A stretch of DNA of 63,616 bases, counting the filler. It is 6 parts of 6 records of this genome, joined end to end, with 100 filler letters (N's around TTAATTAATTAA, not from the genome) between each part and the next. Parts side by side here need not be neighbours in the genome. Positions count along the whole stretch, not along the records: positions 24,723 to 49,357 come from SRR31156797_45522; 5 more parts are not named here. One strand, given 5' to 3'. The translations under genes and the position numbers were made by a program. The notes under the pieces were generated by a model that was not told the origin of the DNA, searched no databases, and saw only the letters and a program-made list of their open reading frames with translations. Positions 1,202 to 38,680 of this stretch are shown here, piece after piece (position 1 is the first letter of the stretch; each line of letters opens with the position of its first letter).

Positions 1202-1277
1202 GCGGCGTTACACCCGGCCCCGTCCCGGGGCCTTCCTGCTTACCAACGGTTACAAAGGATTTCGGGATCACGTCGAA

Positions 1278-18637: not shown

Positions 18638-18737
18638 NNNNNNNNNNNNNNNNNNNNNNNNNNNNNNNNNNNNNNNNNNNNTTAATTAATTAANNNNNNN
18701 NNNNNNNNNNNNNNNNNNNNNNNNNNNNNNNNNNNNN
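18638..18737. other. Artificial contig spacer
   Basis: N44-TTAATTAATTAA-N44. Confidence 0.99.
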
Positions 18738-19463
18738 GTCCAGGGGATAAAGGGTGCGGGGATCCACCACTTCCACGTCCATACCGTCAGCTGAGAGTTG
18801 TTCCGCCGCCTCAAGGGCCGTATGAACCATCCTGGCCGTGGCCACAACGGTCACGTCCTTCCCTTCCCGTTTGAGATCGGCTTCACCCAATGAAATGGCA
18901 TAATCCCCTTCCGGGACATCGCCTTCCACCGCATAAAGCATTTTATGCTCCAGGAATACCACCGGGTTGTCGTCGCGGATCGATTGGATCAAAAGGCCCT
19001 TGGCGTCATAGGGTGTGCTGGGCATCACCACCTTCAAACCGGGCAGGTGCATAAACATGGCTTCCAGACACTGGGAATGCTGGGCCGCGGCCCCGATGCC
19101 GGCCCCGCAACTGGTTCGCATCACCATGGGGATTTTGGCCTTGCCGCCGAACATATATTTCATCTTAGCCGCCTGGTTATAGAGTTGGTCCAGGGCCACG
19201 CCGATAAAATCAACAAACATCATTTCCACAACGGGCCTGAGACCCGCGGTTGCTGCTCCCACCGCCGTCCCCACGATGGCGCTTTCCGTTATGGGAGTGT
19301 CTTTTACCCGCTTTTCACCGAACCGGTCCAGCAGGCCGGCCGTTACACCGAAACATCCACCAAAAACCCCCACGTCCTCACCCGCCACATAAATATTCGG
19401 GTCACGCTCCATTTCAACCACGTGAGCGTCATTTATCGCTTGCGCAAAATTCATATTCGGCAT
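18738..19463 (-). CDS. acoB: Acetoin/2-oxoacid dehydrogenase E1 beta subunit (3' truncated)
   Basis: DTPITES, NQAAKMKYMFGG, AAQHSQ, PSTPYDAKGLL; runs into the spacer. Confidence 0.85.
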
Positions 19464-19522
19464 TTTTCAATCCTCCTCCTCGGTTTTGGCTATTCTATTT
19501 CCATGTCGCGCCGTAAACGCTT

Positions 19523-20482
19523 TTAGGTGTATACATCCTCCATGAGTTCAGAGACTTGGGGAAAGGGGCTTTCTTCGGCGAATTGTTCGGCTGCCGCCAG
19601 ATCGTCCTGAAGCGCTTTTTGGATCTTTTCAATTTTGCTCCGGGTCAACACATCCATCTCCAGCAGTTTTTCCTCAAACCGTGGAATCGGATCTTTTCCC
19701 TTCCACTCCTGAAGTTCCGCATCTTCACGATAGGCACAGGGGTCCCCTTCAAAATGCCCCCGGTGGCGGTAGGTTTTGCATTCAAGCAGAGACGGCCCCC
19801 TGCCCAGGCGTGCGCGGTTGATGGCTTCGGAGGCCGCTTCACAAACGGCAACCACATCATTTCCGTCCACCACCATGCCGGGGATGTCATATCCCGCGGC
19901 CCGGTCCGCCACGTTGGGAACGCACATGGAGTTGAGGGTACAGGAGGAGATGCCGTACATGTTGTTTTCGTTTACAAACACCACCGGCAATTTCCAGCAG
20001 CTGGCCAGGTTCATGGCCTCATGGGTGGTTCCCTGGTTGGAAGCGCCGTCGCCGAAAAAACAAATGGCCACACCGTCACTTTCCTGATACTGGCAGGCCA
20101 ATGCGGCGCCTGAAGCCAAAGGGGGACCGCCTCCCACTATACCGTTGGCCCCCATAATGCCCAGATCAAGATCGGCGATATGCATGGAACCGCCTTTCCC
20201 CTTACAGTATCCGGTATTTTTGCCGTACAGTTCGGCCATCATGGGCTTGATATCGGCGCCTTTAGCGATCATATGTCCGTGCCCGCGATGGGTGCTGGTG
20301 ATATAATCCTTGTGGGTCAAATTGGCGCAAACCCCGGTGGCAACGGCTTCTTCGCCCACATAAAGATGCACAAAGCCCGGAATTTTACCGTCTGCAAAAA
20401 GCTCGGCCACCCGATTTTCAAAGGTTCGAATCTTGACCATGGTGGAATACATCTCAATTAATTGTTCATGGGTCAGGTCCAT
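19523..20482 (-). CDS. acoA: Acetoin/2-oxoacid dehydrogenase E1 alpha subunit (TPP-dependent)
   Basis: GFVHLYVGEEA, THRGHGH, GKGGSMH, GDG...ENN TPP motif, GHFEGD. Confidence 0.88.
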   Translation of the reverse strand: MDLTHEQLIEMYSTMVKIRTFENRVAELFADGKIPGFVHLYVGEEAVATGVCANLTHKDYITSTHRGHGHMIAKGADIKPMMAELYGKNTGYCKGKGGSMHIADLDLGIMGANGIVGGGPPLASGAALACQYQESDGVAICFFGDGASNQGTTHEAMNLASCWKLPVVFVNENNMYGISSCTLNSMCVPNVADRAAGYDIPGMVVDGNDVVAVCEAASEAINRARLGRGPSLLECKTYRHRGHFEGDPCAYREDAELQEWKGKDPIPRFEEKLLEMDVLTRSKIEKIQKALQDDLAAAEQFAEESPFPQVSELMEDVYT

Positions 20483-20542
20483 TGGTTTCCTCCTTAATGT
20501 TTTGGATAAGAATCTCTTTTGCCTACATACATGCCTTATTAA

Positions 20543-21913
20543 TTACCCCCGGGGCAAAAACAAAGCCCAATTGCCGGCATCACGGGCAGCGTCCACAACG
20601 GCCTCGGAAAAGGACGGGTGAACGCGGATACCGCGGGCCAACTCCTGCACCGTGGATTCCAACTGCATGGCCACCACCGCTTCTCCGATGATTTCGGTGG
20701 CATGGGTTCCTACGATATGAACACCCAATATTTCTCCATAACGGCTATCTGAAACTATTTTGACGGCGCCGTCCACTTCATTGTGAACCATTGCCAGCCC
20801 GTTTATGGAATAGGGGAAACTGCCCGTTTCCACGTCAAACCCCTGATCTTCGGCTTCATCTTCGCTTAATCCCACCGATGCCATCTGGGGAGTGGTCCAC
20901 AGGCACCGGGGAATTAGCCCAAAAGGGAATTTGCGTGACTGTCCCATGGCGTTTTCAGCCGCAAATACCGCCATGGAGGACGCCCCGTGGCTGAGCATCC
21001 ACCCCCCCGAGGCATCACCGATGGCGTAAATGCCTTCCACCGACGTCTGCAGGTATTCGTCAACCCGAATACCGGCATCGTCATTCAGCGCCACCCCCAC
21101 CGTTTCCAGGCCCATATGGGAAGTATTGGGCACGCGTTTGGACGCAAGGATCTTTTCCACCGTAAGGGTTTGGGCTTTTTTTCCGCCGATGGTACATTGA
21201 ACACCGTTTTCGACCTCTTTCATGGTCTCCACAGGGCCGCGTAAAATGATTTCCATCCCCGCGGCCCTAAGTATCTGAGCCATCCGCTGGCTGGTTTCGG
21301 CGTCCTCCCTGGGAAGAATCCGCCCGGTTTCGGCCGCCATGGTGACCTTGCAGCCGAAGGTATTGAGCAGATGCGCCATTTCCACTTCGATATACCCTGC
21401 ACCGACAATCAAAACCGACTCCGGCGGCCGGGACATGTCCAGCACCTGGTCGGTGGTCAGCATGGCTTTTTCCGGAATCATCTCACCCGGTGCGGCCAGG
21501 GAACTGCCGGTGGCCACAATGATCTTCCCGGCTTCCATGTTCCGGCCTTCCACATGAACGGTCCGGGGGTCTTTCAAATCCGCCCGCCCGTTAACGACTT
21601 CAACGCCGTTGTTTTGCAGCAAAGCCTCCATGCCCATTCGAATGTCGGCAGCCACACCGTTTTTACGGTCCACAACCGCTGTAAAATCGGTTTTCGGGTC
21701 GGTGACCTTAAGCCCGAAGTCAGCTCCGGACCGGACCCTTTGCAACAATTCCGCGGCCCTCAGCCACACCTTGCTGGGAATACACCCCCGGTTAACGCAT
21801 GTGCCGCCCAACTCGGAAGCTTCCATCAACAAGACTTTGGCCCCCAATTGGGCCCCCCTAATGGCGGCCGCATAGCCGCCGGATCCGCCTCCCACTACCG
21901 CGATGTCATACAT
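20543..21913 (-). CDS. lpdA: Dihydrolipoamide dehydrogenase (E3)
   Basis: GGGSGG FAD motif, GGTCVNRGCIPSK redox disulfide, HPSFSE C-terminus. Confidence 0.92.
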   Translation of the reverse strand: MYDIAVVGGGSGGYAAAIRGAQLGAKVLLMEASELGGTCVNRGCIPSKVWLRAAELLQRVRSGADFGLKVTDPKTDFTAVVDRKNGVAADIRMGMEALLQNNGVEVVNGRADLKDPRTVHVEGRNMEAGKIIVATGSSLAAPGEMIPEKAMLTTDQVLDMSRPPESVLIVGAGYIEVEMAHLLNTFGCKVTMAAETGRILPREDAETSQRMAQILRAAGMEIILRGPVETMKEVENGVQCTIGGKKAQTLTVEKILASKRVPNTSHMGLETVGVALNDDAGIRVDEYLQTSVEGIYAIGDASGGWMLSHGASSMAVFAAENAMGQSRKFPFGLIPRCLWTTPQMASVGLSEDEAEDQGFDVETGSFPYSINGLAMVHNEVDGAVKIVSDSRYGEILGVHIVGTHATEIIGEAVVAMQLESTVQELARGIRVHPSFSEAVVDAARDAGNWALFLPRG

Positions 21914-21943
21914 GGTATTGTTTTTGTCCTTTCCAAAAGTGTT

Positions 21944-23272
21944 TTAGCCCAGCATCAGCATCGGTTCCTTCAGGTTCCCGGCCAGATCCCGCAAAAAAAT
22001 CATTGCCGGGGCTCCGTCCACAACTTTGTGATCAAAGGTGAGACTGAGGGTCATCATGTGTCGAACGGCAATTTCACCATCCACCACCGCCGGCTTCGCC
22101 ACAACCCGGCCCACGCCCAAAATACCGGTTTCCGGCGGGTTCAATACCGGTGTAAAGCCATCCATGTCCAGCATGCTCACATTGGTGATGGTAAAGGTGC
22201 CGCCCGTGGCTTCGTCCATGGCAAGGGTGCCCTTGCGGGCCCTGCCTGCCAGATCCCGGGCTTCCCCGGCGATCTGCAGCAGGCTCTTTTTCTCCGCATT
22301 GCGCAGCTTGGGCACGATCAGACCTTCTTCGAGGGCCACGGCAATTCCCATGTGCACGGCGTCATGAAGAATGATCTCTTCGCCCACGAGGGTTGAGTTC
22401 ATGATGGGATGTTGTTTCAATGCCCGTACGGTTGCCAGGATAATGATGTCGTTGTAGGAAATTTTAAATTCCGCCTTCTTGTATTTCTCCCGCATCAGAT
22501 CCCTGAAGCGAACCATTTCAGTGACATCCACCTCGGTAAAGGCGGTCAATTGCGCCGCATTTTGCAGGCTGGCATGCATATTGTCGGCGATGACCTTGCG
22601 GATCCCCTTCATGGGGATCACCTTCACCTCGGAAGGCGCCGGATCCACCTCCGGCTGCCCCTTTCCGGCCCCTAGGACACGCGTCACGTCTTCTTTGGTG
22701 ATTTTCCCCCCTTCACCGGTTCCGGTGATTTCGCTCAAGTCCAAACCTTCCTGTTTGACCATCTCCGCCGCCAGGGGGGTGATGCCGGGCATGGGCGGTC
22801 CTTCCTCATGAAACTTCAAGACATCGGCTTCCTTCACTTTGCCGTTTGGACCGGTCCCCGGTACCAGACTGATATCAATTCCCAATTGGCGCGCCACCCG
22901 CCGTGCGGACGGTGTGGACAATATGCGGGGTTTGGGGGCCGGCGGTTCTTCTTCGGGGGACGTGCCACCGGATGACGCTTCCCCTTCCACCGCCTCCCCC
23001 AATTGGACCCCTTCCATAGGTTCGGGCTGTTCCCCCGGTTCGGCAATCACCGCCACAATGGCACCCACCGGCACGGTGGTACCCGTGGGAACCACGATCT
23101 GGAAAAGGATGCCCCCTGCCGAAGATTCAATCTGGTTGGTTATTTTTTCGGTTTCCACCTCGAACAGGACCTCGCCTTTTAGAACGGTATCGCCCTCGTT
23201 TTTATACCATTTTGACAAGGTTCCTTCCTTCATGGTCATGCCCATCTTGGGCATGGTAACATTGACACTCAA
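21944..23272 (-). CDS. acoC: Dihydrolipoamide acetyltransferase (E2) with one lipoyl and two E3-binding domains
   Basis: ETEKI lipoyl Lys; GTGPNGKV and GTGEGGKI binding domains; DHKVVDG catalytic motif; TTG start. Confidence 0.9.
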   Translation of the reverse strand: MSVNVTMPKMGMTMKEGTLSKWYKNEGDTVLKGEVLFEVETEKITNQIESSAGGILFQIVVPTGTTVPVGAIVAVIAEPGEQPEPMEGVQLGEAVEGEASSGGTSPEEEPPAPKPRILSTPSARRVARQLGIDISLVPGTGPNGKVKEADVLKFHEEGPPMPGITPLAAEMVKQEGLDLSEITGTGEGGKITKEDVTRVLGAGKGQPEVDPAPSEVKVIPMKGIRKVIADNMHASLQNAAQLTAFTEVDVTEMVRFRDLMREKYKKAEFKISYNDIIILATVRALKQHPIMNSTLVGEEIILHDAVHMGIAVALEEGLIVPKLRNAEKKSLLQIAGEARDLAGRARKGTLAMDEATGGTFTITNVSMLDMDGFTPVLNPPETGILGVGRVVAKPAVVDGEIAVRHMMTLSLTFDHKVVDGAPAMIFLRDLAGNLKEPMLMLG

Positions 23273-24622: not shown

Positions 24623-24722
24623 NNNNNNNNNNNNNNNNNNNNNNNNNNNNNNNNNNNNNNNNNNNNTTAATTAATTAANNNNNNNNNNNNNNNNNNNNNN
24701 NNNNNNNNNNNNNNNNNNNNNN
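24623..24722. other. Artificial contig spacer
   Basis: N44-TTAATTAATTAA-N44. Confidence 0.99.
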
Positions 24723-24782
24723 AACCCTTTTCAAAGGGTTCTCTGGTCCCGCCGAAGGCGCCCCCGGAGGGTCACCAAAGGC
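24723..24782. repeat. Right part of a REP-like palindromic intergenic element at the contig start
   Basis: AACCCTTT-TC-AAAGGGTT-CTCTGG; the matching CCAGAG arm is at the other end of the same contig (49352-49357). Confidence 0.55.
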
Positions 24783-25937
24783 TTATGTAAGTTTTTCGAA
24801 TGCCTGACGCATAGCGACTGCAGCCAGAATGGTGCGTTCGGTCAGCGAGGCAGTGATCATGTATTCATTGTGCGAGTGGTCCTTGCCACCAGTGGGACCA
24901 AGGCCGTCGATAACCGGAGTCCCTGCATTGGCTATGAAGTTGGCGTCTGAAACACCACCTCGTGCGCTTTCCTGAACCGGGATGCCTAGTTCGGTACCGG
25001 TAGAGGCCACGATTTCGTATAGGCTCGCAATAGCCGGACTGTTTTCCATGGTCGGCCTGCCCGGTATGACTTCCAATTGGCAGTTCGTGCCGGGAATGGT
25101 CGGAGAAGCCGCTGAATTTTCAATGGCCTCACGCAGAATAACGCCTTCCAATTCATTCCAGTACCGACATTCGATTTTGGCTTTGGCCGAGGGGGCGACA
25201 GTGTTTGGCCCCACACCGCCTTCGACCAAACCAACGTTGACGGAGACACCCTTTGCTGCATCATTGAGTGCTTCAAGGGTAATGGTCTGATGCGCCATTT
25301 CAAGGATGGCACTGGGTTTTGGTCCCGTCAGATTGCCGGAATGACCTGCTTGACCTTGAATTTCCAAAGAAAAGGATATTTTACCTTTTCGCGCGGTGAC
25401 GATTTTTCCGCCCGGGCTGGAACATTCAAAGACAAAGGCCATGGCCACTTTTTTAGCTTCTTCAATGATGAGGTCTTGTGAATGAGGTGAGCCTATTTCT
25501 TCGTCTGAATTGAAGACAAAAGTAATAGGCATGTCATCAAGAAGGCCTGCGGCATTAAGTGCTTTGAGCGCATAAATGCCGACAACCAACCCTCCTTTCA
25601 TATCCACCACGCCGGGTCCGATGATGGTGTCACCATCCGGGCGAAAACAATCAAATCCATCTTCGGGTGGAAAAACCGTGTCCATATGACCACAAAGCAA
25701 GAGACCGTTGTTGTCGGGTTGAGTTGCGTTTTGTGCGACCAGATTGTCGCCAACCTCGTCACGCTTTTCGCGTCGAACAGTGAATCCCATGTCGGTCATC
25801 ACGCTCTCAAGGACCGAAGCGACTGCATCGGTTCCCGGTTTATTGGGCGTGTAACTGTTGATGCACACGATCTTTTCGAGCAGGTCCATCATTTCCTGCT
25901 CATGATTCGTGATATATGTGCGAATGGACTCAAGCAT
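24783..25937 (-). CDS. M20 metallopeptidase (carboxypeptidase G2-like)
   Basis: GHMDTV, GPGVVDMKGG, DEEIGS, GGVSDAN and distal His ligand. Start overlaps the aminomutase stop (TAATG). Confidence 0.9.
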   Translation of the reverse strand: MLESIRTYITNHEQEMMDLLEKIVCINSYTPNKPGTDAVASVLESVMTDMGFTVRREKRDEVGDNLVAQNATQPDNNGLLLCGHMDTVFPPEDGFDCFRPDGDTIIGPGVVDMKGGLVVGIYALKALNAAGLLDDMPITFVFNSDEEIGSPHSQDLIIEEAKKVAMAFVFECSSPGGKIVTARKGKISFSLEIQGQAGHSGNLTGPKPSAILEMAHQTITLEALNDAAKGVSVNVGLVEGGVGPNTVAPSAKAKIECRYWNELEGVILREAIENSAASPTIPGTNCQLEVIPGRPTMENSPAIASLYEIVASTGTELGIPVQESARGGVSDANFIANAGTPVIDGLGPTGGKDHSHNEYMITASLTERTILAAVAMRQAFEKLT

Positions 25938-27487
25938 TATTTTTTGCCGTACTGGTTGAAGGCAAAATTGGTGTCATTGCCGTATCCTTCCGGGGCGGCG
26001 TCCGGGTAACGGACTTCGCCGCCCCACGGTTTCTGGAGGATGACAACTCCGTCCTCGCGGCCTTGAACATTGTCGCGGTGGAGCGGAATCTTGCCGCCGG
26101 CAGCCGCAATGTAGCGCGGGATGGCATCACCGGAAATGTTGCCGTACATGCCTTCCACGATGTCCCGACCTTTCTGGATGGGGACGCGCATGTGATAGTA
26201 CTGGGGGTTTCGATAGGAGCAGTTAAAGATGTAGTAGGGGCGTATGTATGATTCTTGAATGGTCTCACACAGATGCCACATCTTGACCTTGGAATCATTG
26301 ATGCCGCGCAAAAGAACGGCCTGATTGAGAACTGCGGAGACACGTTTGGAAATCTCCTTGAATGCCTGACGGGAAACAGGAGTGATCTCTTGAGCCGTGT
26401 TGATCTGTGTGACCACGCGGACGGGTTTCTTGTCATTGCTTTCTTCCAGAATGTCGAGAAGCTCTGCATCCACTCGCTGTGGAGTGGTGACGGGGACACG
26501 TGTGCCGAGGCGTTTCATCTTGATGTGGTCGATGTCATCCAGTTTGCCGAGCAGCCAACGAAGTGAGCTGTTGGACAACATGAATGCGTCTCCACCGGTA
26601 ATTAACACGTCACGAATGGCCGGTTTTGAGGCGATGTAGTCGAGGGCTTCTTGATATGCAGCTTTTGAAAAGGTGCGGTCAGATCCACCGATATGAGCAA
26701 TGCGCAAACAGTGTGTGCAATACATGGCGCAGATGTTGGTGGATTTGAGGGCCACCACACGTGGGTAGAATTGATCGACAAGACGAACCGGAGAATGATC
26801 CGAGGCTACGGGCGGGATTTCTTCACCCACGGTGTCGACCATCTCAGCGGTGGGGACAGCCTGAAGGATGACAGGGTCATTGGGTACAGGTTGGATGAGG
26901 CTGGCATAATACGGTGTCATGCGCATGCGGTATTTTTGAGTGATGCGCGCTACGTCCTGAATACAGTCCTCGGGAAGATCGAGACACTTTTGCAGGGTTT
27001 CGGTATTGTCGATACAGTTACCGAGTTGGCCGGAGAAGGAATTCCAGTCGTCGTCTGTCATGCCCAGAACTGATTTAATGCGTGCCTGATTCTCAAGGAT
27101 TTTGTCCCAGAGTTGAATGCCACTAGGGGCTTCAGTATCCTTGCGTGCCAGATAATCCTTCACACGCAGGCCAGCGTCGGTGATGATTTCAAGGGCTCGG
27201 CCCACGCGGCCACCTATGGTCACAGAGTGCTCGTCGATTTTGACATGCTTGGCGCACAGTTCGATAAGATTTTCGCGGGTCAGGCCGTATGCTTCATAGC
27301 CGGGACCGTTTGCGGTTTTGGCATTTTTGAGAGCGTGAAATAGAGCCACGATAGGCGCTGTGCCTTCAGTCTCTTTAGCGTCGGCGTAAAGCTGTTGCAT
27401 GTTGGTGGAATCGGCTTCGGTTGCAGTACCGTTACCGGAAATCTGTTCAAGCAAGTCCGTCGTAAAACCATCCAATTGAAAAGCCAT
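25937..27487 (-). CDS. KamA-family PLP/radical SAM 2,3-aminomutase, divergent (glutamate 2,3-aminomutase-like scaffold)
   Basis: CAMYCTHC, RDVLITGGD, RLGTRVPVT.PQR, NQAVLLRGIND, RPYY, GGKIP (PLP Lys). Probable start MAFQLDG at 27487. Confidence 0.9.
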   Translation of the reverse strand: MAFQLDGFTTDLLEQISGNGTATEADSTNMQQLYADAKETEGTAPIVALFHALKNAKTANGPGYEAYGLTRENLIELCAKHVKIDEHSVTIGGRVGRALEIITDAGLRVKDYLARKDTEAPSGIQLWDKILENQARIKSVLGMTDDDWNSFSGQLGNCIDNTETLQKCLDLPEDCIQDVARITQKYRMRMTPYYASLIQPVPNDPVILQAVPTAEMVDTVGEEIPPVASDHSPVRLVDQFYPRVVALKSTNICAMYCTHCLRIAHIGGSDRTFSKAAYQEALDYIASKPAIRDVLITGGDAFMLSNSSLRWLLGKLDDIDHIKMKRLGTRVPVTTPQRVDAELLDILEESNDKKPVRVVTQINTAQEITPVSRQAFKEISKRVSAVLNQAVLLRGINDSKVKMWHLCETIQESYIRPYYIFNCSYRNPQYYHMRVPIQKGRDIVEGMYGNISGDAIPRYIAAAGGKIPLHRDNVQGREDGVVILQKPWGGEVRYPDAAPEGYGNDTNFAFNQYGKK

Positions 27488-27488
27488 G

Positions 27489-28889
27489 TCAGTACCTGTT
27501 TGTTTCGTGGTCGACGATGGATTCCGCCAACCTGTTTGTTCCTTTTTCCAGTTCATGAAGCATATCTTTGCGTGTGGCTGCTACAGCGGCCACGCGCCCT
27601 AGAAAAGTTCCGGCTTTTACCAGAACATCTTCTCCTGTGTGTTCAAGGATGATGTGCCCGCGAAGTCCGTCGATGGCCGCCTGAGTGAAAAGAGTGCGCT
27701 CTGGAAGACTTTGTTTGATTTCGCTAGTGGTGACAACATCCGTTTCTACTTTGTGATTGAAGGTTCCCCAGTGAAGGTCACCGTTGATGATGGCGTCAAA
27801 GTCGGGTGTCTCCTTGTCTGTGGGGAGTTTGTCATGGAGTACAGCATGTGCTTCCATGTCAAACAGGTTGGGAGATCCTTCTGGAAGCAGTTGCTCCAAT
27901 GCGCTGCAAAATTCCATGGTCGTCCCCTGTTTGCGCGCGTTGACTTCGATGAAAAAGATGTCTTCGTTTTCGGTGACGATGTAGTCGCATCCATAGATGC
28001 CTCGGAAACCCAGCTTCCCGAGTTCTCGACCTATGGCCGCGGTGTAATTTCGAAGATCTGTCTGTACGTTAGCAGGCAGTATGGATGGGAACGTTGAACC
28101 TCGGAATTTATTGCCATCCACAATATTCATGTCCGCAACACCGGCCACATATACTTCGTTTTCATTGCCGACAACGGCTAAAACAGTCGGGTCGTGTGTG
28201 TGCGGCGCGTATCCGCTTATAAGGTAATGTGTCTCCGGGCAGGAGAAACGACCGAGCGCGTCTTCGGCGCATTGGCAAACCATGCTTTGAGCACCGCCCG
28301 CACTGTGACTTGCCGAAACGAACATGCCGTGAGGCGAACGACTCCCAAGTTCCTTGAGGCCTTGTTCCAGAGCCTCGGCGCCGCAGCAAATCATGAAGTC
28401 AACCACTGGGGCTACTTTGGAAAAGGTCTCGTACTGCCACGTTTTATCGTTGAGGTGTTCAATTAGGTCAGCTCTTGGGCCGAGCAGAGTGATTTTCCCC
28501 TCATGGCCAAGGTTCAGCTCTGGGCGGCTTTCAAACATCCAGACAAAAACATGATCCTGTTGCTTAAGTAGGGTCTGCAGCAATTCTTTTATGTATGTCG
28601 ATTCTGATAGTTCTCTAGAAAATGTCGACATGGGGGTACGATAAGCGACCTTTTGCCCAGCGGTCTCTATTTCTTTTTTTGCGGTCGGATTGAATACTGC
28701 GAGGTTACTGAATGCCGTAGTATCGATAAGATCGGGAGCGATTGAAATGGCTTTAAAAGGGGTGTCGAACTCACGCTCAAGCGCTTTGGCGACAAAGTCG
28801 TTGAGTCCGTAAGCTTTTAACTCTCCGATAAAAATGAAATATGTGACGCTAGGGTCCAGATGAATATTCGTAAAATGCAGTTCGTCCAT
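27489..28889 (-). CDS. ATP-grasp domain protein (putative amide/peptide ligase)
   Basis: NDK, HSAGG loop, GFRGIYGCDYIV...FFIEVNAR (D...ExNxR). The stop is 1 nt before the aminomutase start. Confidence 0.82.
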   Translation of the reverse strand: MDELHFTNIHLDPSVTYFIFIGELKAYGLNDFVAKALEREFDTPFKAISIAPDLIDTTAFSNLAVFNPTAKKEIETAGQKVAYRTPMSTFSRELSESTYIKELLQTLLKQQDHVFVWMFESRPELNLGHEGKITLLGPRADLIEHLNDKTWQYETFSKVAPVVDFMICCGAEALEQGLKELGSRSPHGMFVSASHSAGGAQSMVCQCAEDALGRFSCPETHYLISGYAPHTHDPTVLAVVGNENEVYVAGVADMNIVDGNKFRGSTFPSILPANVQTDLRNYTAAIGRELGKLGFRGIYGCDYIVTENEDIFFIEVNARKQGTTMEFCSALEQLLPEGSPNLFDMEAHAVLHDKLPTDKETPDFDAIINGDLHWGTFNHKVETDVVTTSEIKQSLPERTLFTQAAIDGLRGHIILEHTGEDVLVKAGTFLGRVAAVAATRKDMLHELEKGTNRLAESIVDHETNRY

Positions 28890-29191
28890 GTCTGGTCAGT
28901 GCTTTTTTATACGTTCTACAGGTATATTCTTTCAATTTAGCTACAAAAGCTGATATGCGATTAACAGAAAACCATCGGTCTGTCTCTAATTTTGGAATAA
29001 CCCGTTGCGAAAAAAAACGTTTTTTGGTAAATCGTTATGTCGGCTAGTAATTTTATTCGTCTCGTTTGACGGAAGTGGAAAACTGGCTGTTATTGTGTTT
29101 TTGTGGAAAATTTTGTGTTTTTATTATGGGTCGGGCTTTGAGAGGGGCTTGATCGATTGGGTTAACTTTTTTTGTTCTGGAGGAACTGAGA

Positions 29192-30160
29192 ATGAAAAAA
29201 ATTCTGTACGTGGCCATGCTGCTTTGCTTGGGTTACATGCTCACCGTTGTCCCCGCTTCGGCTGGTAAAACCAAATTTGTGACCATCGGTACCGGCGGTA
29301 TCACTGGCGTTTACTACCCGACTGGTGGCGCTATCGCCAAAATAGTGAACAAGAAAAAAGATGTCTACGGCATCCGTGCTACAGTTGAGTCCACCGGCGG
29401 TTCCGTGTTCAATGTCAACGCCGTCATGGCTGGTGATCTTGAATTTGGTGTTGTGCAGTCCGACCGCCAGTACCAGGCCTTCGAAGGTATTGCAGAATGG
29501 GATGGCAAGCCTCAGAAGAAACTGCGTGCAGTTTTCTCCATTCATCCCGAGTCCGTGACTCTGGTCGCCGGTGCTGACACTGGTATCAAGGGCATCAAGG
29601 ACCTCAAGGGCAAGAAAGTCAATATCGGTAACCCCGGTTCCGGTCAGCTTCAGAACTCCAAAGATGCTTTGGCTGCTGCCGGTTTGACTCTTGATGACAT
29701 TGACGCTGAAAAGGTCAAAGCTGCGGAGGCCCCTGGCCTGCTGCAAGATGGTCGTATTGATGCATTTTTCTACACCGTTGGTCATCCCTCCGGCGCGATT
29801 AAGGAAGCATGTGCTGGCGCTCGTAAGGTGAACATCGTGCCTATTACTGGCGTGGATTCCCTGTATGAAAAGTTCCCTTACTATGCTCCTTCCGTTATTC
29901 CCATGAAGAATTACCCCAGCGCAGCCAATGCCGGTGCCGATGTGCCTAGCTTTGGTGTGAAAGCGACCTTCGTGACCTCCTCTGATGTCCCTGATGAGAT
30001 TGTGTATGCTATCACCAAGGAAGTCTTTGAGAACTTTGAAGAATTCAAGAAGTTGCATCCCGCCTATGCTGTCCTGACCAAGGAAGGCATGCTGCAGGGT
30101 CTGTCCGCTCCGATTCATCCCGGCGCAATGAAGTACTACAAGGAAGCAGGCCTCAAATAG
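29192..30160 (+). CDS. TAXI-family TRAP substrate-binding protein
   Basis: IGTGGITGVYYPTGG, STGGSVFN, GNPGSG, PIHPGA.KYYKE; signal peptide. Confidence 0.95.
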   Translation: MKKILYVAMLLCLGYMLTVVPASAGKTKFVTIGTGGITGVYYPTGGAIAKIVNKKKDVYGIRATVESTGGSVFNVNAVMAGDLEFGVVQSDRQYQAFEGIAEWDGKPQKKLRAVFSIHPESVTLVAGADTGIKGIKDLKGKKVNIGNPGSGQLQNSKDALAAAGLTLDDIDAEKVKAAEAPGLLQDGRIDAFFYTVGHPSGAIKEACAGARKVNIVPITGVDSLYEKFPYYAPSVIPMKNYPSAANAGADVPSFGVKATFVTSSDVPDEIVYAITKEVFENFEEFKKLHPAYAVLTKEGMLQGLSAPIHPGAMKYYKEAGLK

Positions 30161-30307: not shown

Positions 30308-32389
30308 ATGGAAGATAAGACTTTAGACGACAACAATGTAAAAGGGGTGGAATACGCCCGCGAGCTGGCCGAGGCCGAACATGGTCTGCAAGGCGATAGC
30401 GTTGGTGTGACCAGAACATTGACTATTGCCATTGCTATCATGTGGTCATTGTTTCAGCTTTCCATCGCCAGCTGGCTGATTATGGATACGCTGTATATTA
30501 GAGCTTTCCATTTGGCGTTCGCAATTTTGCTCGTCTTTTTAAATGTACCCATGATGAAGGGGAATCCCAAATGGCGGCCTGACCTTCGGTTCCTCATGGT
30601 CATGAATCGCGTGACTATTCTCGACTATATTTTTGGTATATTGGCTGCTTTTGCGGCTTTGTATATATTTATTGATTATGACGGTATTTCCATGCGCTAT
30701 GGCGCGCCGACCACCAGAGATATCCTTTTCGGGTTGATGCTGGTCGGTTTGCTGCTTGAAGCCACACGGCGTGTCATCGGGCCTGCATTGCCTGTGATTG
30801 CCATTCTGTTTTGCGTGTATGCGTTTCTCGGGCCATATATGCCTGACGTCATTGCGTTTAAAGGGGTGTCCCTGAATCGATTTATCGGCCAGATGTCCAT
30901 GAGTTCGGAAGGTATCTACGGTATTCCGTTAGATGTTTCAGCGACCATTGTTTTTCTGTTCGTGTTGTTCGGGACCATGCTGGAAAAAGCAGGGGCCGGT
31001 CATTTCTTCATTCAGTTGGCTCTGTGTGTTCTCGGTGGGTTCAAGGGTGGACCGGCCAAGGCCGCAATTCTTGGTTCCGGTTTGACCGGGATGGTTTCCG
31101 GTTCATCGATCGCCAATATTGTGACCACGGGTACTTTTACCATCCCGCTGATGAAGAAGGTGGGCTACCCGCCGACCAAGGCTGGTGCTATCGAAGTTGC
31201 TGCATCCACTGATGGACAGCTTGCTCCGCCTATTATGGGCGCTGCTGCTTTTATTATCGCCGAATATGTGAACGTGCCATATATCGAAGTCGTTAAAGCG
31301 GCTGCAGTTCCTGCCTTTGCTTCATACGCAGCGTTGATTTACATCTCGCATATTGAGGCATCGAAGCTCGGATTGTCCGGCATACCGCGTGCTGAATTGC
31401 CGAAGTTTATCCCGACGCTTATGTCTGGACTACATTTTCTCTTGCCACTCGGCATGCTTCTCTACGAACTGATTGCCTTGCGTCATTCCCCGGAATTGGC
31501 TGCTTTTCGGGCGATTCTCGTGCTTATGGGGATCATGTTGTTGCAAAAGCCGATCAAGGCGAAACTTGCCGGACAGCCGCTTTTCCCAGCCATCAAACAA
31601 AGTGTGAAGGATATTTTTCTTTCCATGGCTGAAGGAGCGCGGAATATGGCCGGTGTTGCCATGGCAACCGCTGCGGCCGGTATTATTGTCGGTGTTGTGG
31701 CCCTTGGACTTGGCGGATTGATCACACAGATCATCGACGTCTTGTCCGGTGGCAACATCTTCCTGATGCTTGTCATTACGGCCATGGCGAGTTTGCTTAT
31801 CGGTATGGGGCTGCCTACCACAGCTACTTATATTGTCATGGCTTCGCTTACGGCGCCGGCCATTGTCAGTATCGGTGGTTTACAGGGCTTTCTCGTGCCG
31901 CTTATGGCAGCGCATTTGTTCTGTTTCTACTTTGGTATTCTGGCGGACGATACTCCGCCGGTTGGTCTGGCTGCGTATGCTGCTGCGGCCATTGCCGAGG
32001 CGCCGCCCATACCAACGGGATTGCAGGGATTCATGTATGATATTCGTACGGCCATTTTACCGTTCATGTTCATATTCAACCATGATCTGATTCTGCATAA
32101 CGTGGACAGTTGGCCTCAAGGTCTGCTGATCTTTGGTATGGCGTGTGTCGGAAACTTTGCGTTTGCTTCGGCGACACAAGGGTGGTTCATTGCCAAGAAC
32201 AGGTTCTACGAGATACCTATTCTGCTTGCCATTACCATGGTTATGTTCAGGCCGGATCTTATTTCCAGATTGGTTGGTCTGCCATATGACATGCGCTACT
32301 GGGTCTATCCGGTTGGTTTGATTCTGTGGGGTGTGATGTGGGTGATGCAACGTCCCAGACAACAGAAGGCCGACGCCGTCGCGGCGTAA
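30308..32389 (+). CDS. TRAP transporter fused 4TM/12TM permease (TAXI type)
   Basis: GGPAKAA, SGSSIANIVTTGTFTIPLMK, GMGLPTT, ADDTPPVGLAAY. Confidence 0.95.
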   Translation: MEDKTLDDNNVKGVEYARELAEAEHGLQGDSVGVTRTLTIAIAIMWSLFQLSIASWLIMDTLYIRAFHLAFAILLVFLNVPMMKGNPKWRPDLRFLMVMNRVTILDYIFGILAAFAALYIFIDYDGISMRYGAPTTRDILFGLMLVGLLLEATRRVIGPALPVIAILFCVYAFLGPYMPDVIAFKGVSLNRFIGQMSMSSEGIYGIPLDVSATIVFLFVLFGTMLEKAGAGHFFIQLALCVLGGFKGGPAKAAILGSGLTGMVSGSSIANIVTTGTFTIPLMKKVGYPPTKAGAIEVAASTDGQLAPPIMGAAAFIIAEYVNVPYIEVVKAAAVPAFASYAALIYISHIEASKLGLSGIPRAELPKFIPTLMSGLHFLLPLGMLLYELIALRHSPELAAFRAILVLMGIMLLQKPIKAKLAGQPLFPAIKQSVKDIFLSMAEGARNMAGVAMATAAAGIIVGVVALGLGGLITQIIDVLSGGNIFLMLVITAMASLLIGMGLPTTATYIVMASLTAPAIVSIGGLQGFLVPLMAAHLFCFYFGILADDTPPVGLAAYAAAAIAEAPPIPTGLQGFMYDIRTAILPFMFIFNHDLILHNVDSWPQGLLIFGMACVGNFAFASATQGWFIAKNRFYEIPILLAITMVMFRPDLISRLVGLPYDMRYWVYPVGLILWGVMWVMQRPRQQKADAVAA

Positions 32390-33065: not shown

Positions 33066-33794
33066 ATGGCAATGATAGAAGTGCAGAAACTGCACAAGTG
33101 GTATGGCGATTTTCATGTATTACAAGGTATTACAGAGTCCGTGAATAAGGGCGAGGTGCTGGTAATCTGTGGTCCCTCTGGCTCCGGTAAATCCACCTTT
33201 ATCCGCTGTATCAATCGGTTGGAGGAGTATCAGAAAGGTCAAATCCTTTTTGACGGCAAAGATATCCTGGATAAGGACGTCAACGTCAACGATTTGCGAG
33301 CTGAGATCGGTATCGTGTTTCAGCAGTTTAATCTGTATCCCCATCTGACAGTCCTGAAAAATGTGACCTTGGCACCTATCAAGGTCAAGAACGTTCCTAA
33401 GGAAGAGGCCGAAAAAGTCGCCCTCAGCCTGCTTGAACGCGTTGGTATTCACGATCAGGCACATAAATACCCCGCTGAGCTTTCCGGTGGTCAGCAGCAG
33501 CGTGTGGCTATCGCCCGCTCTTTGGCCATGAAGCCAAAGGTTATGCTTTTTGACGAGCCGACCTCTGCTTTGGACCCGGAAATGATCAATGAGGTCCTCA
33601 ACGTCATGAAGGATTTGGCCCGCGAAGGCATGACCATGCTGTGCGTTACCCACGAAATGGGTTTTGCCCGTGAAGTGTGCGACCGTGTGCTGTTCATGGA
33701 CGGCGGTGTCGTGGTGGAGCAGGCTCCGCCGGATGAATTCTTTAAGAATCCCCAGCACGAGCGTACGAAGAACTTCCTGAAGGAAATTCTTTAA
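33066..33794 (+). CDS. Polar amino acid ABC transporter ATP-binding protein (GlnQ-like)
   Basis: [28 protein letters not shown]. Probable start MAMIEV at 33066. Confidence 0.95.
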
Positions 33795-33835
33795 TCGGTA
33801 TATACATTGAAACTCTAAGAGAGAGGAGAGGGTTA

Positions 33836-34642
33836 ATGAAACGGTTGGTAATTATTCTGGCTTTGGTGCTGTCATTCATGTTTGCCGCGAGCATTGCTTC
33901 CGCAGGCAAGATTGAAGATGTAAAAGCAAAAGGTGTGCTGACGTGTGGCGTCAAGGACTCCGTAAACCTGTTTGGTTTTATTGATGCCGATTCCAAGGAA
34001 TTGGTCGGTTTTGACATTGATATTTGCAAATACATTGCTTCCAAACTTGGCGTGAAGACTGAGTTCAAGGTCGTCACCTCCAAGAACCGTATTCCTATGC
34101 TGGTTCAGGGTTCCGTGGACATGGTCGCCGCTACCATGACCCATAAGTTTTCCCGTGATGAGCAGATTGACTTTTCTATCACCTACTTCATGGATGGTCA
34201 GAAAATTCTCGTGAAGAAAGGCTCCGGTATTGCTTCCGCTGCTGATCTTGCGAACAAGAAAGTTGGTACCGTCAAGGGTTCCACCTCTGAAAAGAACATC
34301 AAGAATGCACAGCCCAAGGCACACGTCATTTCCTATGATGAATACCCCCAGGCTTTCATGGCTTTGAAGCAGGGCAAGGTCAAAGCTGTGACCACCGATT
34401 CCGGTATTCTTGCTGGCCTCAAGGCCGGTGATGACAATCCTGAAAAGTGGGAAATCACTGGCGAATTCATCGCCTCTGAGCCTTATGGTCTTGGTTTGCC
34501 CCAGAACGATTCCGCTTTCCGCGATTTCGTTAATAAGTGTCTCAATGAGATGTGGTTGGACGGTACTTACCAGAAGCTGTTCAAGAAGTGGATGGGTTAC
34601 GACCTTCCTGAAGGTTGGACCATCGAACTCTGGCCTATGTAA
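33836..34642 (+). CDS. Amino acid ABC transporter substrate-binding protein (Glu/Asp PEB1-like)
   Basis: Signal peptide, GFDIDI, NRIPML..G.VD, YF.DGQ, EPYG motifs. Confidence 0.93.
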   Translation: MKRLVIILALVLSFMFAASIASAGKIEDVKAKGVLTCGVKDSVNLFGFIDADSKELVGFDIDICKYIASKLGVKTEFKVVTSKNRIPMLVQGSVDMVAATMTHKFSRDEQIDFSITYFMDGQKILVKKGSGIASAADLANKKVGTVKGSTSEKNIKNAQPKAHVISYDEYPQAFMALKQGKVKAVTTDSGILAGLKAGDDNPEKWEITGEFIASEPYGLGLPQNDSAFRDFVNKCLNEMWLDGTYQKLFKKWMGYDLPEGWTIELWPM

Positions 34643-34723
34643 GGCTTAGATCGATTGATATGCCGGGAGTGCCAAGAGTGCTCCCGGCTTTCCCTTCTTT
34701 CAACAGCAACCCTGGATGGAATT

Positions 34724-35491
34724 TTGGATTATAATTTTCAATGGGCCAAAATGTTTTCCGGCGAACCAGCCCAGTGGATGTGGGAAGGTTTCACCACGAC
34801 TTTGCAGATATCGTCGATCGCTTTGGTCGGGGCGATGTTGCTTGGGATTTTTATTTGTGTTTTGCGGATGACACCCTTCAAGCCTCTGCAGTGGCTTGCT
34901 CTGGCTTATACAGAATTTTTCAGGAATACTCCGCTGCTTGTGCAGATATTTTTCTGGTACAATGCTTCGCATTTCGTCATCCCAGAGGGCATTAATGAGT
35001 GGATGAATGACCTTTACTACTGGTTTCCCGGGCCGTTTGCATTTCTTGGTCATGAGTTCGTTGGCGAGTGGGTTCTGTTCAACGTGGAGTTGATTACGGG
35101 TGTTATCGCTTTAACCGTCTACACGTCGGCTTTTATAGCTGAAGAGATTCGGGCAGGTATTTTTTCCATTCCCAAGAATCAGCTTGAGGCGTCCCGTGCG
35201 GTCGGCCTCTCCTTTTTGCAGGGCTATCGGTATGTAATTTTGCCTCAGGCTTTACGTATCGTTATTCCGCCGCTCATTTCACAGGCATTGAATCTGATCA
35301 AAAATTCATCGTTGTGCATGGTTATCGGTGTGACCGAAATGATGTTTCAGGCGACTCAGATTGAGTCCTACCATGCAATTCCGTTTGAGGCGTTTTCCGT
35401 AGCTTTGATGATCTATCTGGCTATCTCCCTGGTGGTTTCGTTCTGCATCACCATGTACAACAAGCACTTCATGATTCAGGTCATGTACTAG
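34724..35491 (+). CDS. Amino acid ABC transporter permease
   Basis: FRNTPLLVQ, AEEIRAGI, VILPQA, KNSSL. Probable TTG start at 34724. Confidence 0.92.
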   Translation: MDYNFQWAKMFSGEPAQWMWEGFTTTLQISSIALVGAMLLGIFICVLRMTPFKPLQWLALAYTEFFRNTPLLVQIFFWYNASHFVIPEGINEWMNDLYYWFPGPFAFLGHEFVGEWVLFNVELITGVIALTVYTSAFIAEEIRAGIFSIPKNQLEASRAVGLSFLQGYRYVILPQALRIVIPPLISQALNLIKNSSLCMVIGVTEMMFQATQIESYHAIPFEAFSVALMIYLAISLVVSFCITMYNKHFMIQVMY

Positions 35492-35500
35492 GGGGCGGGC

Positions 35501-36217
35501 ATGCATTGGGATATCGTCATAGACAACTTTGATTACTTTTTGTGGGGGCAGACCAAGTTCGATCTGGTCTTTCCATTCATTCATGATGTGGGCGGCATGT
35601 TGTCCGCTATTATCATGGCTGGTTTGGGTATTTTCGGTGCGTTTTGGATCGGCATGGCCGCGGGGCTTATGCGCCTTTCCAAGCGTTGGTGGCTTAAATT
35701 TCCCGCTGTCGCTTATATAGAAATGGTTCGCGGCATGCCGTTATTGCTGCTTATCTTTTGGTTCTTTTTTCTGGCTCCGGTCCTTATTGGTCAGTCCTTA
35801 CCTGCATTTTCGACGACCGTATTCTGTTTTATGATCTTTACCGGTGCCTATGTTGGTGAAATTGTACGTGCTGGAGTACTGGCTTTACCAAAAGGCCAAC
35901 TTGAAGCGGCGCGTGGTTCGGGTTTGTCTCAAGTGCAGGCTATGAGGTTTGTCATTTTGCCTCAAGCTCTTAGAAATATGATTCCCTCTTTTGTGAATCA
36001 GTTCGTTTCTTTGACCAAAGATACGTCTTTGGCCGCTATTCTGGGTGTAAACGAGTTGACTCGTACAGGTGTTCAGGTGGATAATCGAGAAATGGTCGCT
36101 TCATTTGAAGTGTGGATTACCATTGCCGGTTTGTATTTCCTGTTGTGTTATATCCTGACTTCCTACAGCCGACGTCTGGAGGCTCAGTTGTCTCGTTATC
36201 AGGCAAGGGATCGTTAA
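35501..36217 (+). CDS. Amino acid ABC transporter permease
   Basis: RGMPLL, EIVRAG, QLEAA, VILPQA, KDTSL. Confidence 0.92.
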   Translation: MHWDIVIDNFDYFLWGQTKFDLVFPFIHDVGGMLSAIIMAGLGIFGAFWIGMAAGLMRLSKRWWLKFPAVAYIEMVRGMPLLLLIFWFFFLAPVLIGQSLPAFSTTVFCFMIFTGAYVGEIVRAGVLALPKGQLEAARGSGLSQVQAMRFVILPQALRNMIPSFVNQFVSLTKDTSLAAILGVNELTRTGVQVDNREMVASFEVWITIAGLYFLLCYILTSYSRRLEAQLSRYQARDR

Positions 36218-37530: not shown

Positions 37531-38676
37531 ATGCCCAGACGTAAGAAACGCAAGGAAATTTTTGCCCTTGGCAACGAGGCTGTTGTTGAAGGGGCATTGT
37601 TGGCCGGGTGTTCGTTTTTCGGTGGATATCCAATTACTCCGTCATCTGAGATAATGGAGATAATGGCTGCTCGTCTGCCCAAGACTGAAGATGGTGTTTT
37701 TATTCAGCTTGAGGACGAAATCGCCAGTATGGGAGCCATTATTGGTGGTTCTTTGGCTGGTCGTAAGGCAATGACCGCCACAAGTGGACCTGGCTTTTCG
37801 CTTATGCAGGAGAATCTTGGGTACGCGATTATGGCGGAAGCTCCTTTGGTTCTGGTGAACGTCATGCGTGGTGGCCCATCAACAGGCTTACCTACCTGCC
37901 CGGCGCAGGGAGATGTTCAGCAGGCTCGTTGGGGAACGCATGGTGATCATCCGATTATCGTGTTGTCAGCCTCTAACGTGCAAGAATGTCTTGATATGAC
38001 AATTACTGCATTCAACATGGCTGAGAAATACCGAACTCCGGTTATCCTGTTGTTGGATGAGGTGACTGCGCACACTCGTGAAAAAATCGAATTGCCCAAT
38101 GAAGGCGAGTACGAAGTCTTTTCTCGCACTGTTCCGTCCATGCCGCCTGAGTGGTACAAGCCGTATGAAGAGACCGTACGGGGTGTACCGCCCATGCCTG
38201 CCATTGGCTCTGGTTATCGTTTTCATGTGACTGGTCTGACACATGATCGGAATGGATTTCCTACGCAGCGTCCGGAAGAGGTCGTTGAGCTTATGGATCG
38301 TATCCATCGAAAGATTGACCAGTTCTTCTATGACATCCAGTTGGTGGACGAGGTCCAGACTGATGACGCGGAAGTTGTGGTTATCGCTTACGGTAGTGTG
38401 GCCCGTTCTGCTGAACTGGCTGTGCAGCAGGCCCGCGAAAACGGTGTGAAAGCCGGATTGCTCAAATTGAAAACCCTGTTCCCGTACCCCAGAAGGCATA
38501 CCGAAAAGGTGCTTGCCAAGGCCAAGACACTGGTGGTGCCTGAAATGAATATGGGTCAGATGTCTCGCGAGGTGAAGCGTGTAAATATGGGCCAGGCTGC
38601 GGTCAGGACCATCAATCGCGTGGACGGACAAATCGTCACTCCCGCGGAAATCCTCAAGGTCATCATGCAGGGGTAG
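37531..38676 (+). CDS. korA: 2-oxoglutarate/2-oxoacid:ferredoxin oxidoreductase alpha subunit
   Basis: GYPITPSSE, TATSGPG, RGGPSTG, PEMN.GQ. Confidence 0.92.
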   Translation: MPRRKKRKEIFALGNEAVVEGALLAGCSFFGGYPITPSSEIMEIMAARLPKTEDGVFIQLEDEIASMGAIIGGSLAGRKAMTATSGPGFSLMQENLGYAIMAEAPLVLVNVMRGGPSTGLPTCPAQGDVQQARWGTHGDHPIIVLSASNVQECLDMTITAFNMAEKYRTPVILLLDEVTAHTREKIELPNEGEYEVFSRTVPSMPPEWYKPYEETVRGVPPMPAIGSGYRFHVTGLTHDRNGFPTQRPEEVVELMDRIHRKIDQFFYDIQLVDEVQTDDAEVVVIAYGSVARSAELAVQQARENGVKAGLLKLKTLFPYPRRHTEKVLAKAKTLVVPEMNMGQMSREVKRVNMGQAAVRTINRVDGQIVTPAEILKVIMQG

Positions 38677-38680
38677 TGAC

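Follow-up and report, generated by a model that had tools for sequence, protein, structure and literature searches.

The analysed window, a stretch of DNA of 63,616 nucleotides, carries on its minus strand a gene for an aminomutase of the KamA family (25937..27487, counted from its probable start), whose members are radical S-adenosylmethionine (SAM) enzymes that use pyridoxal 5'-phosphate (PLP). Our analysis supports the assignment of this gene to a separate KamA-family clade, outside all the specificity groups characterised so far. The gene occupies the middle position of a three-gene cassette, in which it is preceded by an ATP-grasp amide ligase and followed by an M20 metallo-amidohydrolase. 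The specificity of PLP-dependent radical-SAM 2,3-aminomutases is read from two pocket residues, and to our knowledge only three substrates have been established, namely lysine, glutamate and arginine. We give an even chance to the proposal that the protein is an active PLP/[4Fe-4S]/SAM 2,3-aminomutase from a sister clade of the glutamate 2,3-aminomutases (Eam), working in a module that makes, and through the M20 enzyme recycles, a β-amino-acid amide derived from glutamate. What is new is its specificity pocket, its N-terminal domain and the set of enzymes with which it is constantly associated; the fold and the cofactors are already known.

The open reading frame (ORF) of the aminomutase (P0001) spans 25937..27556 on the minus strand and has 539 codons, and residues are numbered here from its first ATG. 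An earlier interpretation of the letters of this DNA, referred to here as the sequence-only reading, had claimed that the protein has Ser and Ala at the positions where lysine 2,3-aminomutase (KAM) uses two Asp residues and Eam uses Lys and Asn. The strings that it quoted are all present within 26080-26790: YYIFNCSYRNPQY (residues 441-453), PRYIAAAGGK (480-489), QFYPRV, CAMYCTHCLR and TQINT. The placement of the two residues was confirmed by three independent alignments: a phmmer alignment to KAM (PDB entry 2a5h), along which the KAM residue numbers were counted; a 41-row MAFFT alignment containing AblA, Eam and BlsG (arginine 2,3-aminomutase) rows labelled by NCBIfam; and an hhalign comparison with an Eam-like profile. 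In all of them Ser447 aligns to KAM Asp293 and the Eam Lys, and Ala485 to KAM Asp330 and the Eam Asn. We take the two Asp residues of KAM to hold the ε-ammonium group of lysine, and the Lys and Asn of Eam to be its specificity pair. The alignments also agree on a three-residue gap before GGK, which had been noticed by the sequence-only reading as a shorter loop before the PLP lysine, and on a one-residue insertion, Asn450, after Ser447, about which that reading was silent.

The only match of the protein in a phmmer search of all PDB sequences was lysine 2,3-aminomutase 2a5h (E-value 3.8e-67). Relative to 2a5h, YIYQCD is replaced by YIFNCS, VVDAPGGGGK by IAAA---GGK, HRYPDR by QFYPRV and THFNH by TQINT; the last two substitutions, already pointed out by the sequence-only reading, recur in the 41-row alignment. 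To label the rows, 116 of 150 representatives at 50% identity were scanned, with fragments and three long rows left out, and the NCBIfam cut-offs were exceeded by one Eam, five AblA, one BlsG and four AblA_like_2 rows. The five AblA-labelled rows of the MAFFT alignment read YQCD and DAPGGGGK, with Asp at both positions, and the Eam-labelled row P0130 together with six Eam-like rows reads FHxK and NAPxGLGK, with Lys and Asn, as the sequence-only reading had stated. The BlsG-labelled row P0165 reads YHCD and LTTR--IGK. Fourteen full-length rows of the family of the window protein read FNCS[YF]R[ND]xx and I[AV][AT]A---GGK. In the hhalign comparison, a 12-row family profile matched the seven-row Eam-like profile with probability 100 and an E-value of 1.9e-80, and the match included the Eam N-terminal region.

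Conservation was counted in 123 family sequences, which comprise the window protein, 120 listed homologues, P0124 and P0125; the degenerate P0126 was left out. In the FNCSYRNPQ loop (26201..26227, minus strand, as are all features of the gene), Ser447 and Arg449 are present in all 123 sequences, the inserted Asn450 in 122 and Gln452 in 120. Position 485, within IAAAGGK (26090..26110), is Thr in 88 sequences, Ala in 34 and Pro in one, so that of the two residues singled out by the sequence-only reading Ser is fixed and Ala is a minority state. The PLP lysine of the same segment, Lys489, is invariant, as are the CxxxCxxC cysteines C276, C280 and C283 with Arg285 two residues past the third Cys (CAMYCTHCLR, residues 276-285, 26702..26731), which align to KAM C125, C129, C132 and R134. 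Each residue of G321-G322-D323 (26588..26596), presumably the SAM-binding motif of the GGE type, is likewise found in 123 of 123. Because Ser447, Arg449, Lys489, the Cys triad and Arg285 are invariant throughout the family, the pocket pattern is not the product of chance or of sequencing error. The small residues Ser and Ala or Thr, together with the shorter loop, suggest that the distal end of the pocket is open, and Arg449, Asn450 and Gln452 would then provide a polar and cationic replacement. The excluded P0126 (512 residues, 43% identical) belongs to the same clade; in the 41-row alignment it has lost CxxxCxxC and the PLP lysine and reads QGA for GGK, and it may be a degenerate, non-catalytic paralogue.

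The active site is remodelled beyond the two specificity positions. When residue conservation in 63 family rows was set against that in 69 KamA rows from outside the family, Glu at the column of KAM E86, present in 99% of the other rows, turned out to be replaced in the family by Met239. Four columns of the HRYPDR motif, H111 (His in 75% of the other rows), R112 (Arg, 77%), D115 (Asp, 77%) and R116 (Arg, 91%), are occupied by Gln262, Phe263, Arg266 and Val267 of QFYPRV (residues 262-267, 26756..26773), a motif in which Q and V are found in 123 of the 123 family sequences, F in 122 and R in 119. H233, which is His in 99% of the other rows, corresponds to Thr387 of TQINT (residues 383-387, 26396..26410), conserved in 122 of 123. 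The column of G252 (Gly, 96%) holds Val406, that of D293 (Asp, 77%) Ser447, and that of G297 (Gly, 99%) Gln452. All 69 other rows have a gap at the position of Asn450.

In profile searches, the aminomutase passed a single NCBIfam cut-off, that of the KamA subfamily TIGR00238 (238.6 bits against 199.2). Its best equivalog score was that for Eam (TIGR04368, 321.6 against a cut-off of 650), and it also fell below the cut-offs for lysine 2,3-aminomutase KamA/AblA (TIGR03820, 271.3 against 525.4), BlsG (TIGR04468, 229.1 against 600; the FNCS of the protein likewise differs from the YHCD of P0165), AblA_like_2 (226.5 against 396) and EpmB (TIGR03821, 176 against 369.3, a comparison by score alone). 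The TIGR00238 score, the CxxxCxxC motif, the PLP lysine in a G-K context near the C-terminus and a fold that superposes on KAM place the protein in the KamA family. No curated family in Pfam or NCBIfam covers its clade. A search of 1.84 billion representatives returned as clade members P0124 (53% identity), P0125 (46%), P0126 (43%) and fragments, and the score fell from 427 to 230 bits on leaving the clade among the 50%-identity representatives.

The clade was recovered in the phylogenetic trees with support of 100 and a stem of 0.84-0.94. In a quick tree of 78 rows, the eight family rows formed a clade (Shimodaira-Hasegawa-like approximate likelihood ratio test 100, stem 0.94) outside the seven-row Eam-like clade marked in the tree. 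In trees of 24 rows, the family and the Eam-like rows fell on one side of a branch with support of 99 in the quick analysis (LG+G4) and 99/98.8 in the careful one (LG+C20+F+G4). We read this as a clade that is sister to the Eam-like clade and does not lie within it; the join is absent from the large tree. The position of the protein outside the lysine and glutamate specificity groups, as the sequence-only reading had proposed, is borne out by the profile scores and by the trees. Public records name members of the clade 'lysine 2,3-aminomutase' or 'glutamate 2,3-aminomutase', and the clade thus flags systematic misannotation; the name 'glutamate 2,3-aminomutase' of one orthologue record is automatic and is not evidence.

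An AlphaFold model of the aminomutase was built from a 132-row alignment and has a mean predicted local distance difference test score (pLDDT) of 95.7 and a predicted template modelling score of 0.92. It replaced an earlier single-sequence model of the orthologue P0004, which was discarded (pLDDT 39.4). KAM 2a5h was the top Foldseek match of the model (E-value 5.1e-31), and other radical-SAM structures had E-values of 2e-5 or weaker. The VIA-align superposition on 2a5h, given as residue ranges, covers 335 residues with a Z-score of 44.9, a root-mean-square deviation of 1.6 Å and 37% identity, and places model residues 131-489 on residues 3-390 of the KAM chain; the next entry had a Z-score of 15. 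The retained cofactor motifs, the retained carboxylate-binding Arg and the KAM-like predicted fold make the protein look catalytically competent, and the prediction of an active enzyme made in the sequence-only reading agrees with this.

Up to about residue 130, the model is helical, with pLDDT above 90, and has no counterpart in KAM. The Eam-like profile reaches somewhat further: its alignment begins at family residue 106-110, with family residue 110 at Eam profile position 14, and about 35 N-terminal residues that are missing from KAM are common to Eam and the clade. Since neither the match to KAM nor the Eam-like profile reaches them, the first 95-105 or so residues are specific to the clade. 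This all-helical extension comprises residues 24 to about 129 (27170..27487), where it lies outside the alignments to KAM and the Eam-like rows, and exceeds the Eam N-terminus by about 95 residues counted from Met24. The sequence-only reading was right about the resemblance to Eam and the presence of an extension, and too short in its estimate of about 85 residues. An Atlas search with the N-terminal 112 residues found no recognisable relative, the best score of 0.75 being noise.

The true start of the aminomutase is probably Met24 (27487), and the first ATG of the ORF is at 27556. Met24 is favoured because the 120 listed homologues are 510-539 residues long, mostly 514-526, with query coverage of 89-97%; because tblastn matches in 15 genome loci start at residues 1-56, mostly 22-29; and because Met24 is 1 nucleotide past the TGA stop codon of the upstream ligase gene. 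At the other end, the TAA stop codon of the aminomutase shares one base with the ATG of the M20 gene.

The cassette has the order ligase (P0002, 466 residues, 27489..28889, minus strand), aminomutase and M20 hydrolase (P0003, 384 residues, 24783..25937, minus strand), with junctions that overlap or are 1 nucleotide apart. The ligase matches Pfam ATP-grasp_3 with 20.4 bits, which is under the cut-off. A profile of 11 orthologues had its best match in BesA, an L-propargylglycine--L-glutamate ligase (8yi6, E-value 1.9e-7), followed by LdmS-type 7r8p, biotin-carboxylase-type domains and PGM1-type peptide ligases. BesA, LdmS and PGM1-type enzymes are thus the best solved relatives of the cassette ligase and have its Mg/ATP-binding residues in common; D302, E315, N317, R319 and K320 do not vary among the 11 orthologue rows. 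The score of the ligase for the LdmS equivalog was below the cut-off (18.7 against 475), and an Atlas search returned only unnamed ATP-grasp_3 clusters. The M20 protein matches Pfam Peptidase_M20 (PF01546, 100 bits against 24.6) and M20_dimer. Its best solved relative is carboxypeptidase G2 (CPG2, 1cg2, E-value 5.5e-41), a glutamate carboxypeptidase of the M20 family, with which the HxD, D, EE, E and H motifs of the metal site and the catalytic centre align. In contrast to CPG2, the cassette enzyme is cytoplasmic and operon-linked, and its score for the NCBIfam model 'glutamate carboxypeptidase' was below the cut-off (212.2 against 349).

Linkage of the three genes was assessed in 15 loci from named genome records, which belong to Desulfobacterota, Deferribacterota and one metagenome-assembled genome (MAG) of Aquificota. 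The ligase is directly upstream in all 13 loci that contain upstream flank, the remaining two (L007 and L009) beginning at the aminomutase. The M20 gene is downstream in 12 of the 14 loci with enough flank (L014 is too short) and was not found downstream in L012 and L013. A phylogenetic profile was calculated for 201 genomes of the order to which the Desulfovibrionaceae MAG of locus L003 belongs; the aminomutase was detected in 50 genomes, the ligase in 50 and M20 in 56. Of the 50 genomes with the aminomutase, 47 also encode the ligase, against only 3 of the 151 negative ones, where the matches are only 32-33% identical. In 45 of the 47 genomes with both genes these are directly adjacent on the same strand, and in the other two a contig end falls between them. 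M20 accompanies the aminomutase in 47 of the 50 genomes, in 46 of them directly downstream, and has a match in 9 of the 151 negatives. One 8.1-Mb genome with the ligase-aminomutase pair (G003) has no M20 orthologue anywhere at E ≤ 1e-50. Because M20 is missing from some carriers and the link to the ligase is near-obligate, the ligase and the aminomutase form the core of the cassette, to which the hydrolase is often added. In the literature available for searching, no paper on this cassette was found, as judged by title.

Some of the carriers show further peculiarities. Genome G005 has two complete three-gene cassettes with unrelated neighbours, on contigs C9 (locus L002) and C14 (locus L016, 6833..10994, minus strand). 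The orthologue at L003 (6001-7558) aligns as two overlapping pieces, residues 22-235 and 174-538, which suggests a frameshift or an assembly error. An aminomutase copy at G137:C9:71928-72986 contains seven in-frame stop codons and looks like a pseudogene. In locus L006, a second KamA-family gene of ordinary length (597-1538, minus strand, 372 residues, 30% identical) lies on the opposite strand immediately upstream of the cassette, and other carrier genomes have one to four more KamA-family genes above the family cut-off.

Divergently from the cassette, on the plus strand, the window encodes a TAXI-family solute-binding protein (29192..30160) and a fused permease (30308..32389) of a tripartite ATP-independent periplasmic (TRAP) transporter, which match TIGR02122 with 347.8 bits and TIGR02123 with 632.4 bits, respectively. 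The binding protein aligns with VcGluP (8s4j, E-value 2.7e-91), which, according to the part of PMC11574862 that names its ligand residues, binds L-glutamate with a dissociation constant of 65 nM. Counted along the alignment, Y45, S75, Q93, H123, E125 and Y200 of these VcGluP residues are conserved, D157 is replaced by Gln and M201 by Thr. The four other loci that have a binding-protein gene in range also keep the VcGluP-type motifs. Of 16 places, 7 have a homologue of the fused permease beside the cassette (the window, L003, L005, L008, L009, L011 and L015); they represent three phyla and differing orientations.

All named carriers (Deferribacter, Desulfonatronovibrio, Desulfohalobiaceae, Desulfobaculum and Desulfolithobacter) are taxa of marine, hydrothermal or saline settings. 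Metagenomes from aquaculture, marine sediment and seawater are among the DNA sequencing runs that contain at least a quarter of the stretch, which is no more than a hint; no RNA run with the stretch was listed. In the AblA-AblB system of methanogens and some bacteria, as described in the portions consulted of PMC1224877 and PMC9337991, a KamA-family aminomutase is encoded beside an enzyme that caps a β-amino acid by an amide, and the product is the osmolyte N-ε-acetyl-β-lysine. The cassette follows the same logic of an aminomutase next to an amide-forming enzyme. It differs in having an ATP-grasp ligase instead of a GNAT acetyltransferase, in the added M20 gene and in the loss of the lysine-binding residues. 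The habitats of the carriers and the analogy with AblA-AblB suggest a role in the synthesis of a compatible solute.

Based on these comparisons, a mechanism can be proposed. The BesA/LdmS-like ligase, the aminomutase and the CPG2-like M20 enzyme form a self-contained, translationally coupled module, to which the neighbouring TAXI-TRAP transporter would supply glutamate. The aminomutase would shift the α-amino group of an acidic substrate to the β-carbon, the substrate being either L-glutamate or a γ-glutamyl amide made by the ligase, which we consider about equally probable. The α-carboxylate of the substrate would be held by Arg285, and its distal carboxylate or amide by the loop Ser447-Tyr-Arg449-Asn450-Pro-Gln452 in place of the Lys/Asn pair of Eam. 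The tight coupling of the ligase to the aminomutase implies that an amide is either the final form of the β-amino acid or its starting point. The product would be a small β-amino-acid amide of dipeptide type, probably recycled by the M20 enzyme, and a compatible solute of marine and saline anaerobes is the most plausible physiology. Because the hydrolase is dispensable, an obligatory sequence of protection and deprotection is disfavoured, and the conjugate is favoured as the end product. The origin of the substrate from glutamate is suggested by four pointers that are weak and independent of each other, namely the Eam sister clade, the BesA-like ligase, the CPG2-like hydrolase and the VcGluP-like TAXI protein.

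We speculate further, in an elaboration that we regard as rather unlikely in its entirety, that the ligase acts first and the mutase rearranges the γ-glutamyl conjugate into a new compatible solute of β-glutamyl dipeptide type, with the N-terminal domain docking the ligase. Should this apply, the enzyme would be the first PLP/radical-SAM aminomutase whose substrate is something other than a free proteinogenic amino acid, and its product would be a solute of about a quarter of Desulfovibrionales-type species, of Deferribacteres and of some Aquificota.

Several observations weigh against the proposed glutamate-amide function. The TRAP system is adjacent to the cassette in only 7 of the 16 places. 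The match of the ligase to BesA spans only about 100 residues, and its score for the NCBIfam BesA model is 19.8 against a cut-off of 750. The 78-row quick tree does not join the clade to Eam and places it beside one long-branch row, with a backbone that is not resolved. Trehalose, betaine or salts, and not β-amino acids, are described as the osmolytes of those few halophilic sulfate reducers that have been studied (consulted part of PMC1224877). Finally, the replacements throughout the active site mean that the chemistry could differ.

The same cassette may handle an amino acid other than glutamate, neutral, bulky or basic, such as a side-chain-acylated lysine or ornithine, methionine or leucine, and produce a carnosine-like β-aminoacyl dipeptide that is degraded by M20. 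We judge this explanation unlikely. In its favour are the small Ser and Ala or Thr and the loop shortened by three residues where KAM and Eam hold the distal charge of their substrates. The pairing of an ATP-grasp enzyme with an M20 enzyme is also reminiscent of carnosine synthase and carnosinase, and the clues to glutamate are all indirect. Against it stand the polar and cationic character that the invariant Arg449, Asn450 and Gln452 give the loop, the sister position of the clade to Eam and not to the lysine enzymes, and the resemblance of three neighbours to glutamate-handling proteins. The explanation corresponds to the sequence-only reading, which had suggested a new substrate, possibly neutral or bulkier, such as an amide conjugate, and had named the Arg of SYR as a residue that could overturn its interpretation. 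That Arg, Arg449, is invariant two residues after Ser447 and, with the four glutamate pointers, speaks against a neutral substrate. The amide conjugate gains indirect support from the flanking ligase and amidohydrolase genes, which that reading had not seen. Its observation is confirmed, and its interpretation partly supported. An improbable alternative keeps glutamate as the substrate and makes the protein a second, non-orthologous glutamate 2,3-aminomutase, in which Arg449 takes the place of the Eam Lys, free β-glutamate is the end product and the neighbours do not act on it. Eam is indeed the closest family, with the same KamA fold, Cys triad, GGD, carboxylate Arg and PLP lysine; an invariant Arg lies beside the specificity position; and β-glutamate is a known osmolyte (consulted part of PMC1224877). 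The clade differs from Eam in Ser447 for Lys and Ala485, mostly Thr in the clade, for Asn, in the one-residue insertion and the three-residue deletion, in QFYPRV and TQINT, in the additional N-terminal residues and in the obligate linkage to a ligase. The contrast in ligase content between aminomutase-positive and -negative genomes, the adjacency of the pair, the translational coupling of the aminomutase to both neighbours and the retention of all three genes in the duplicated cassette are difficult to reconcile with neighbours that ignore the product.

The remodelled active site is relevant to a different explanation, according to which the protein is not an aminomutase and catalyses other PLP/radical chemistry, or modifies a protein or peptide together with the ligase in the manner of EpmA/EpmB or RimK. 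This explanation stays alive because residues conserved in 96-99% of the other KamA rows are replaced; the clade-specific N-terminal domain of about 105 residues is unexplained, and peptides serve as substrates for the PGM1-type relatives of the ligase. We nonetheless hold it to be quite improbable, as all the cofactor motifs and the α-carboxylate Arg are kept, the core superposes on KAM, the only solved relative, which has the same cofactor motifs, and no conserved small ORF or target-protein gene was found beside the cassette. A catabolic module, in which an imported peptide or N-acyl amino acid is cleaved by M20 and the aminomutase starts to ferment the amino acid set free, as KamA does for lysine, appears very improbable. 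An uptake system adjoining in some of the places, a hydrolase within the operon and the catabolic role of KamA in clostridia would fit such a module. The most tightly linked partner is, however, a ligase that consumes ATP, no β-amino-acid aminotransferase, dehydrogenase or lyase is conserved beside the cassette, and M20 is the dispensable member, with no orthologue found in G003 at E ≤ 1e-50.

Identification of the product of the clade would add a fourth specificity class to the 2,3-aminomutases and a new enzymatic route to β-amino-acid amides. It would also reveal a metabolite of marine sulfate reducers and vent bacteria that is probably abundant and has gone unnoticed. The clade is common, occurring in a quarter of the sampled genomes of one order (50 of 201) and in other phyla.

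The cassette is located on a contig that spans 24723-49357. Linkers of the form N44-TTAATTAATTAA-N44 are present at window positions 10702-10801, 18638-18737, 24623-24722, 49358-49457 and 58247-58346. They are six-frame stop spacers of the type used for concatenating contigs, and the window consists of at least six contigs. Because the window is several joined contigs, synteny across the linker sites is not real, and the genes to the left of 24723 were ruled out as neighbours of the cassette. At the very end of the cassette contig, about 40 nucleotides beyond the M20 stop codon, there is a perfect inverted repeat able to form a hairpin, AACCCTTT..AAAGGGTT (24723-24740), whose tail is cut off by the linker and which may be the operon terminator. 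A promoter and terminator scan of 24723-29300 did not list this repeat; it gave counts near those of shuffled sequence and no hit in the intergenic region 28890-29191. Rfam had no match at the gathering score across the whole window, and therefore provided no riboswitch clue.

Other genes of the cassette contig encode a polar-amino-acid ATP-binding cassette (ABC) transporter with a GlnQ-like ATPase, a binding protein and two permeases (33072-36217), and an alpha/beta pair of a 2-oxoacid/2-oxoglutarate:ferredoxin oxidoreductase (37531-39532). A homologue of the ABC ATPase (cluster c5) is near the cassette in just 2 of the 15 loci. A different contig of the window carries an operon of 2-oxoacid dehydrogenase type on the minus strand (18738-23272), which was read from translations alone; it has an E1 beta-like ORF that the linker truncates, followed in the list of genes by E1 alpha and by dihydrolipoyl dehydrogenase-like and lipoyl-E2-like ORFs.

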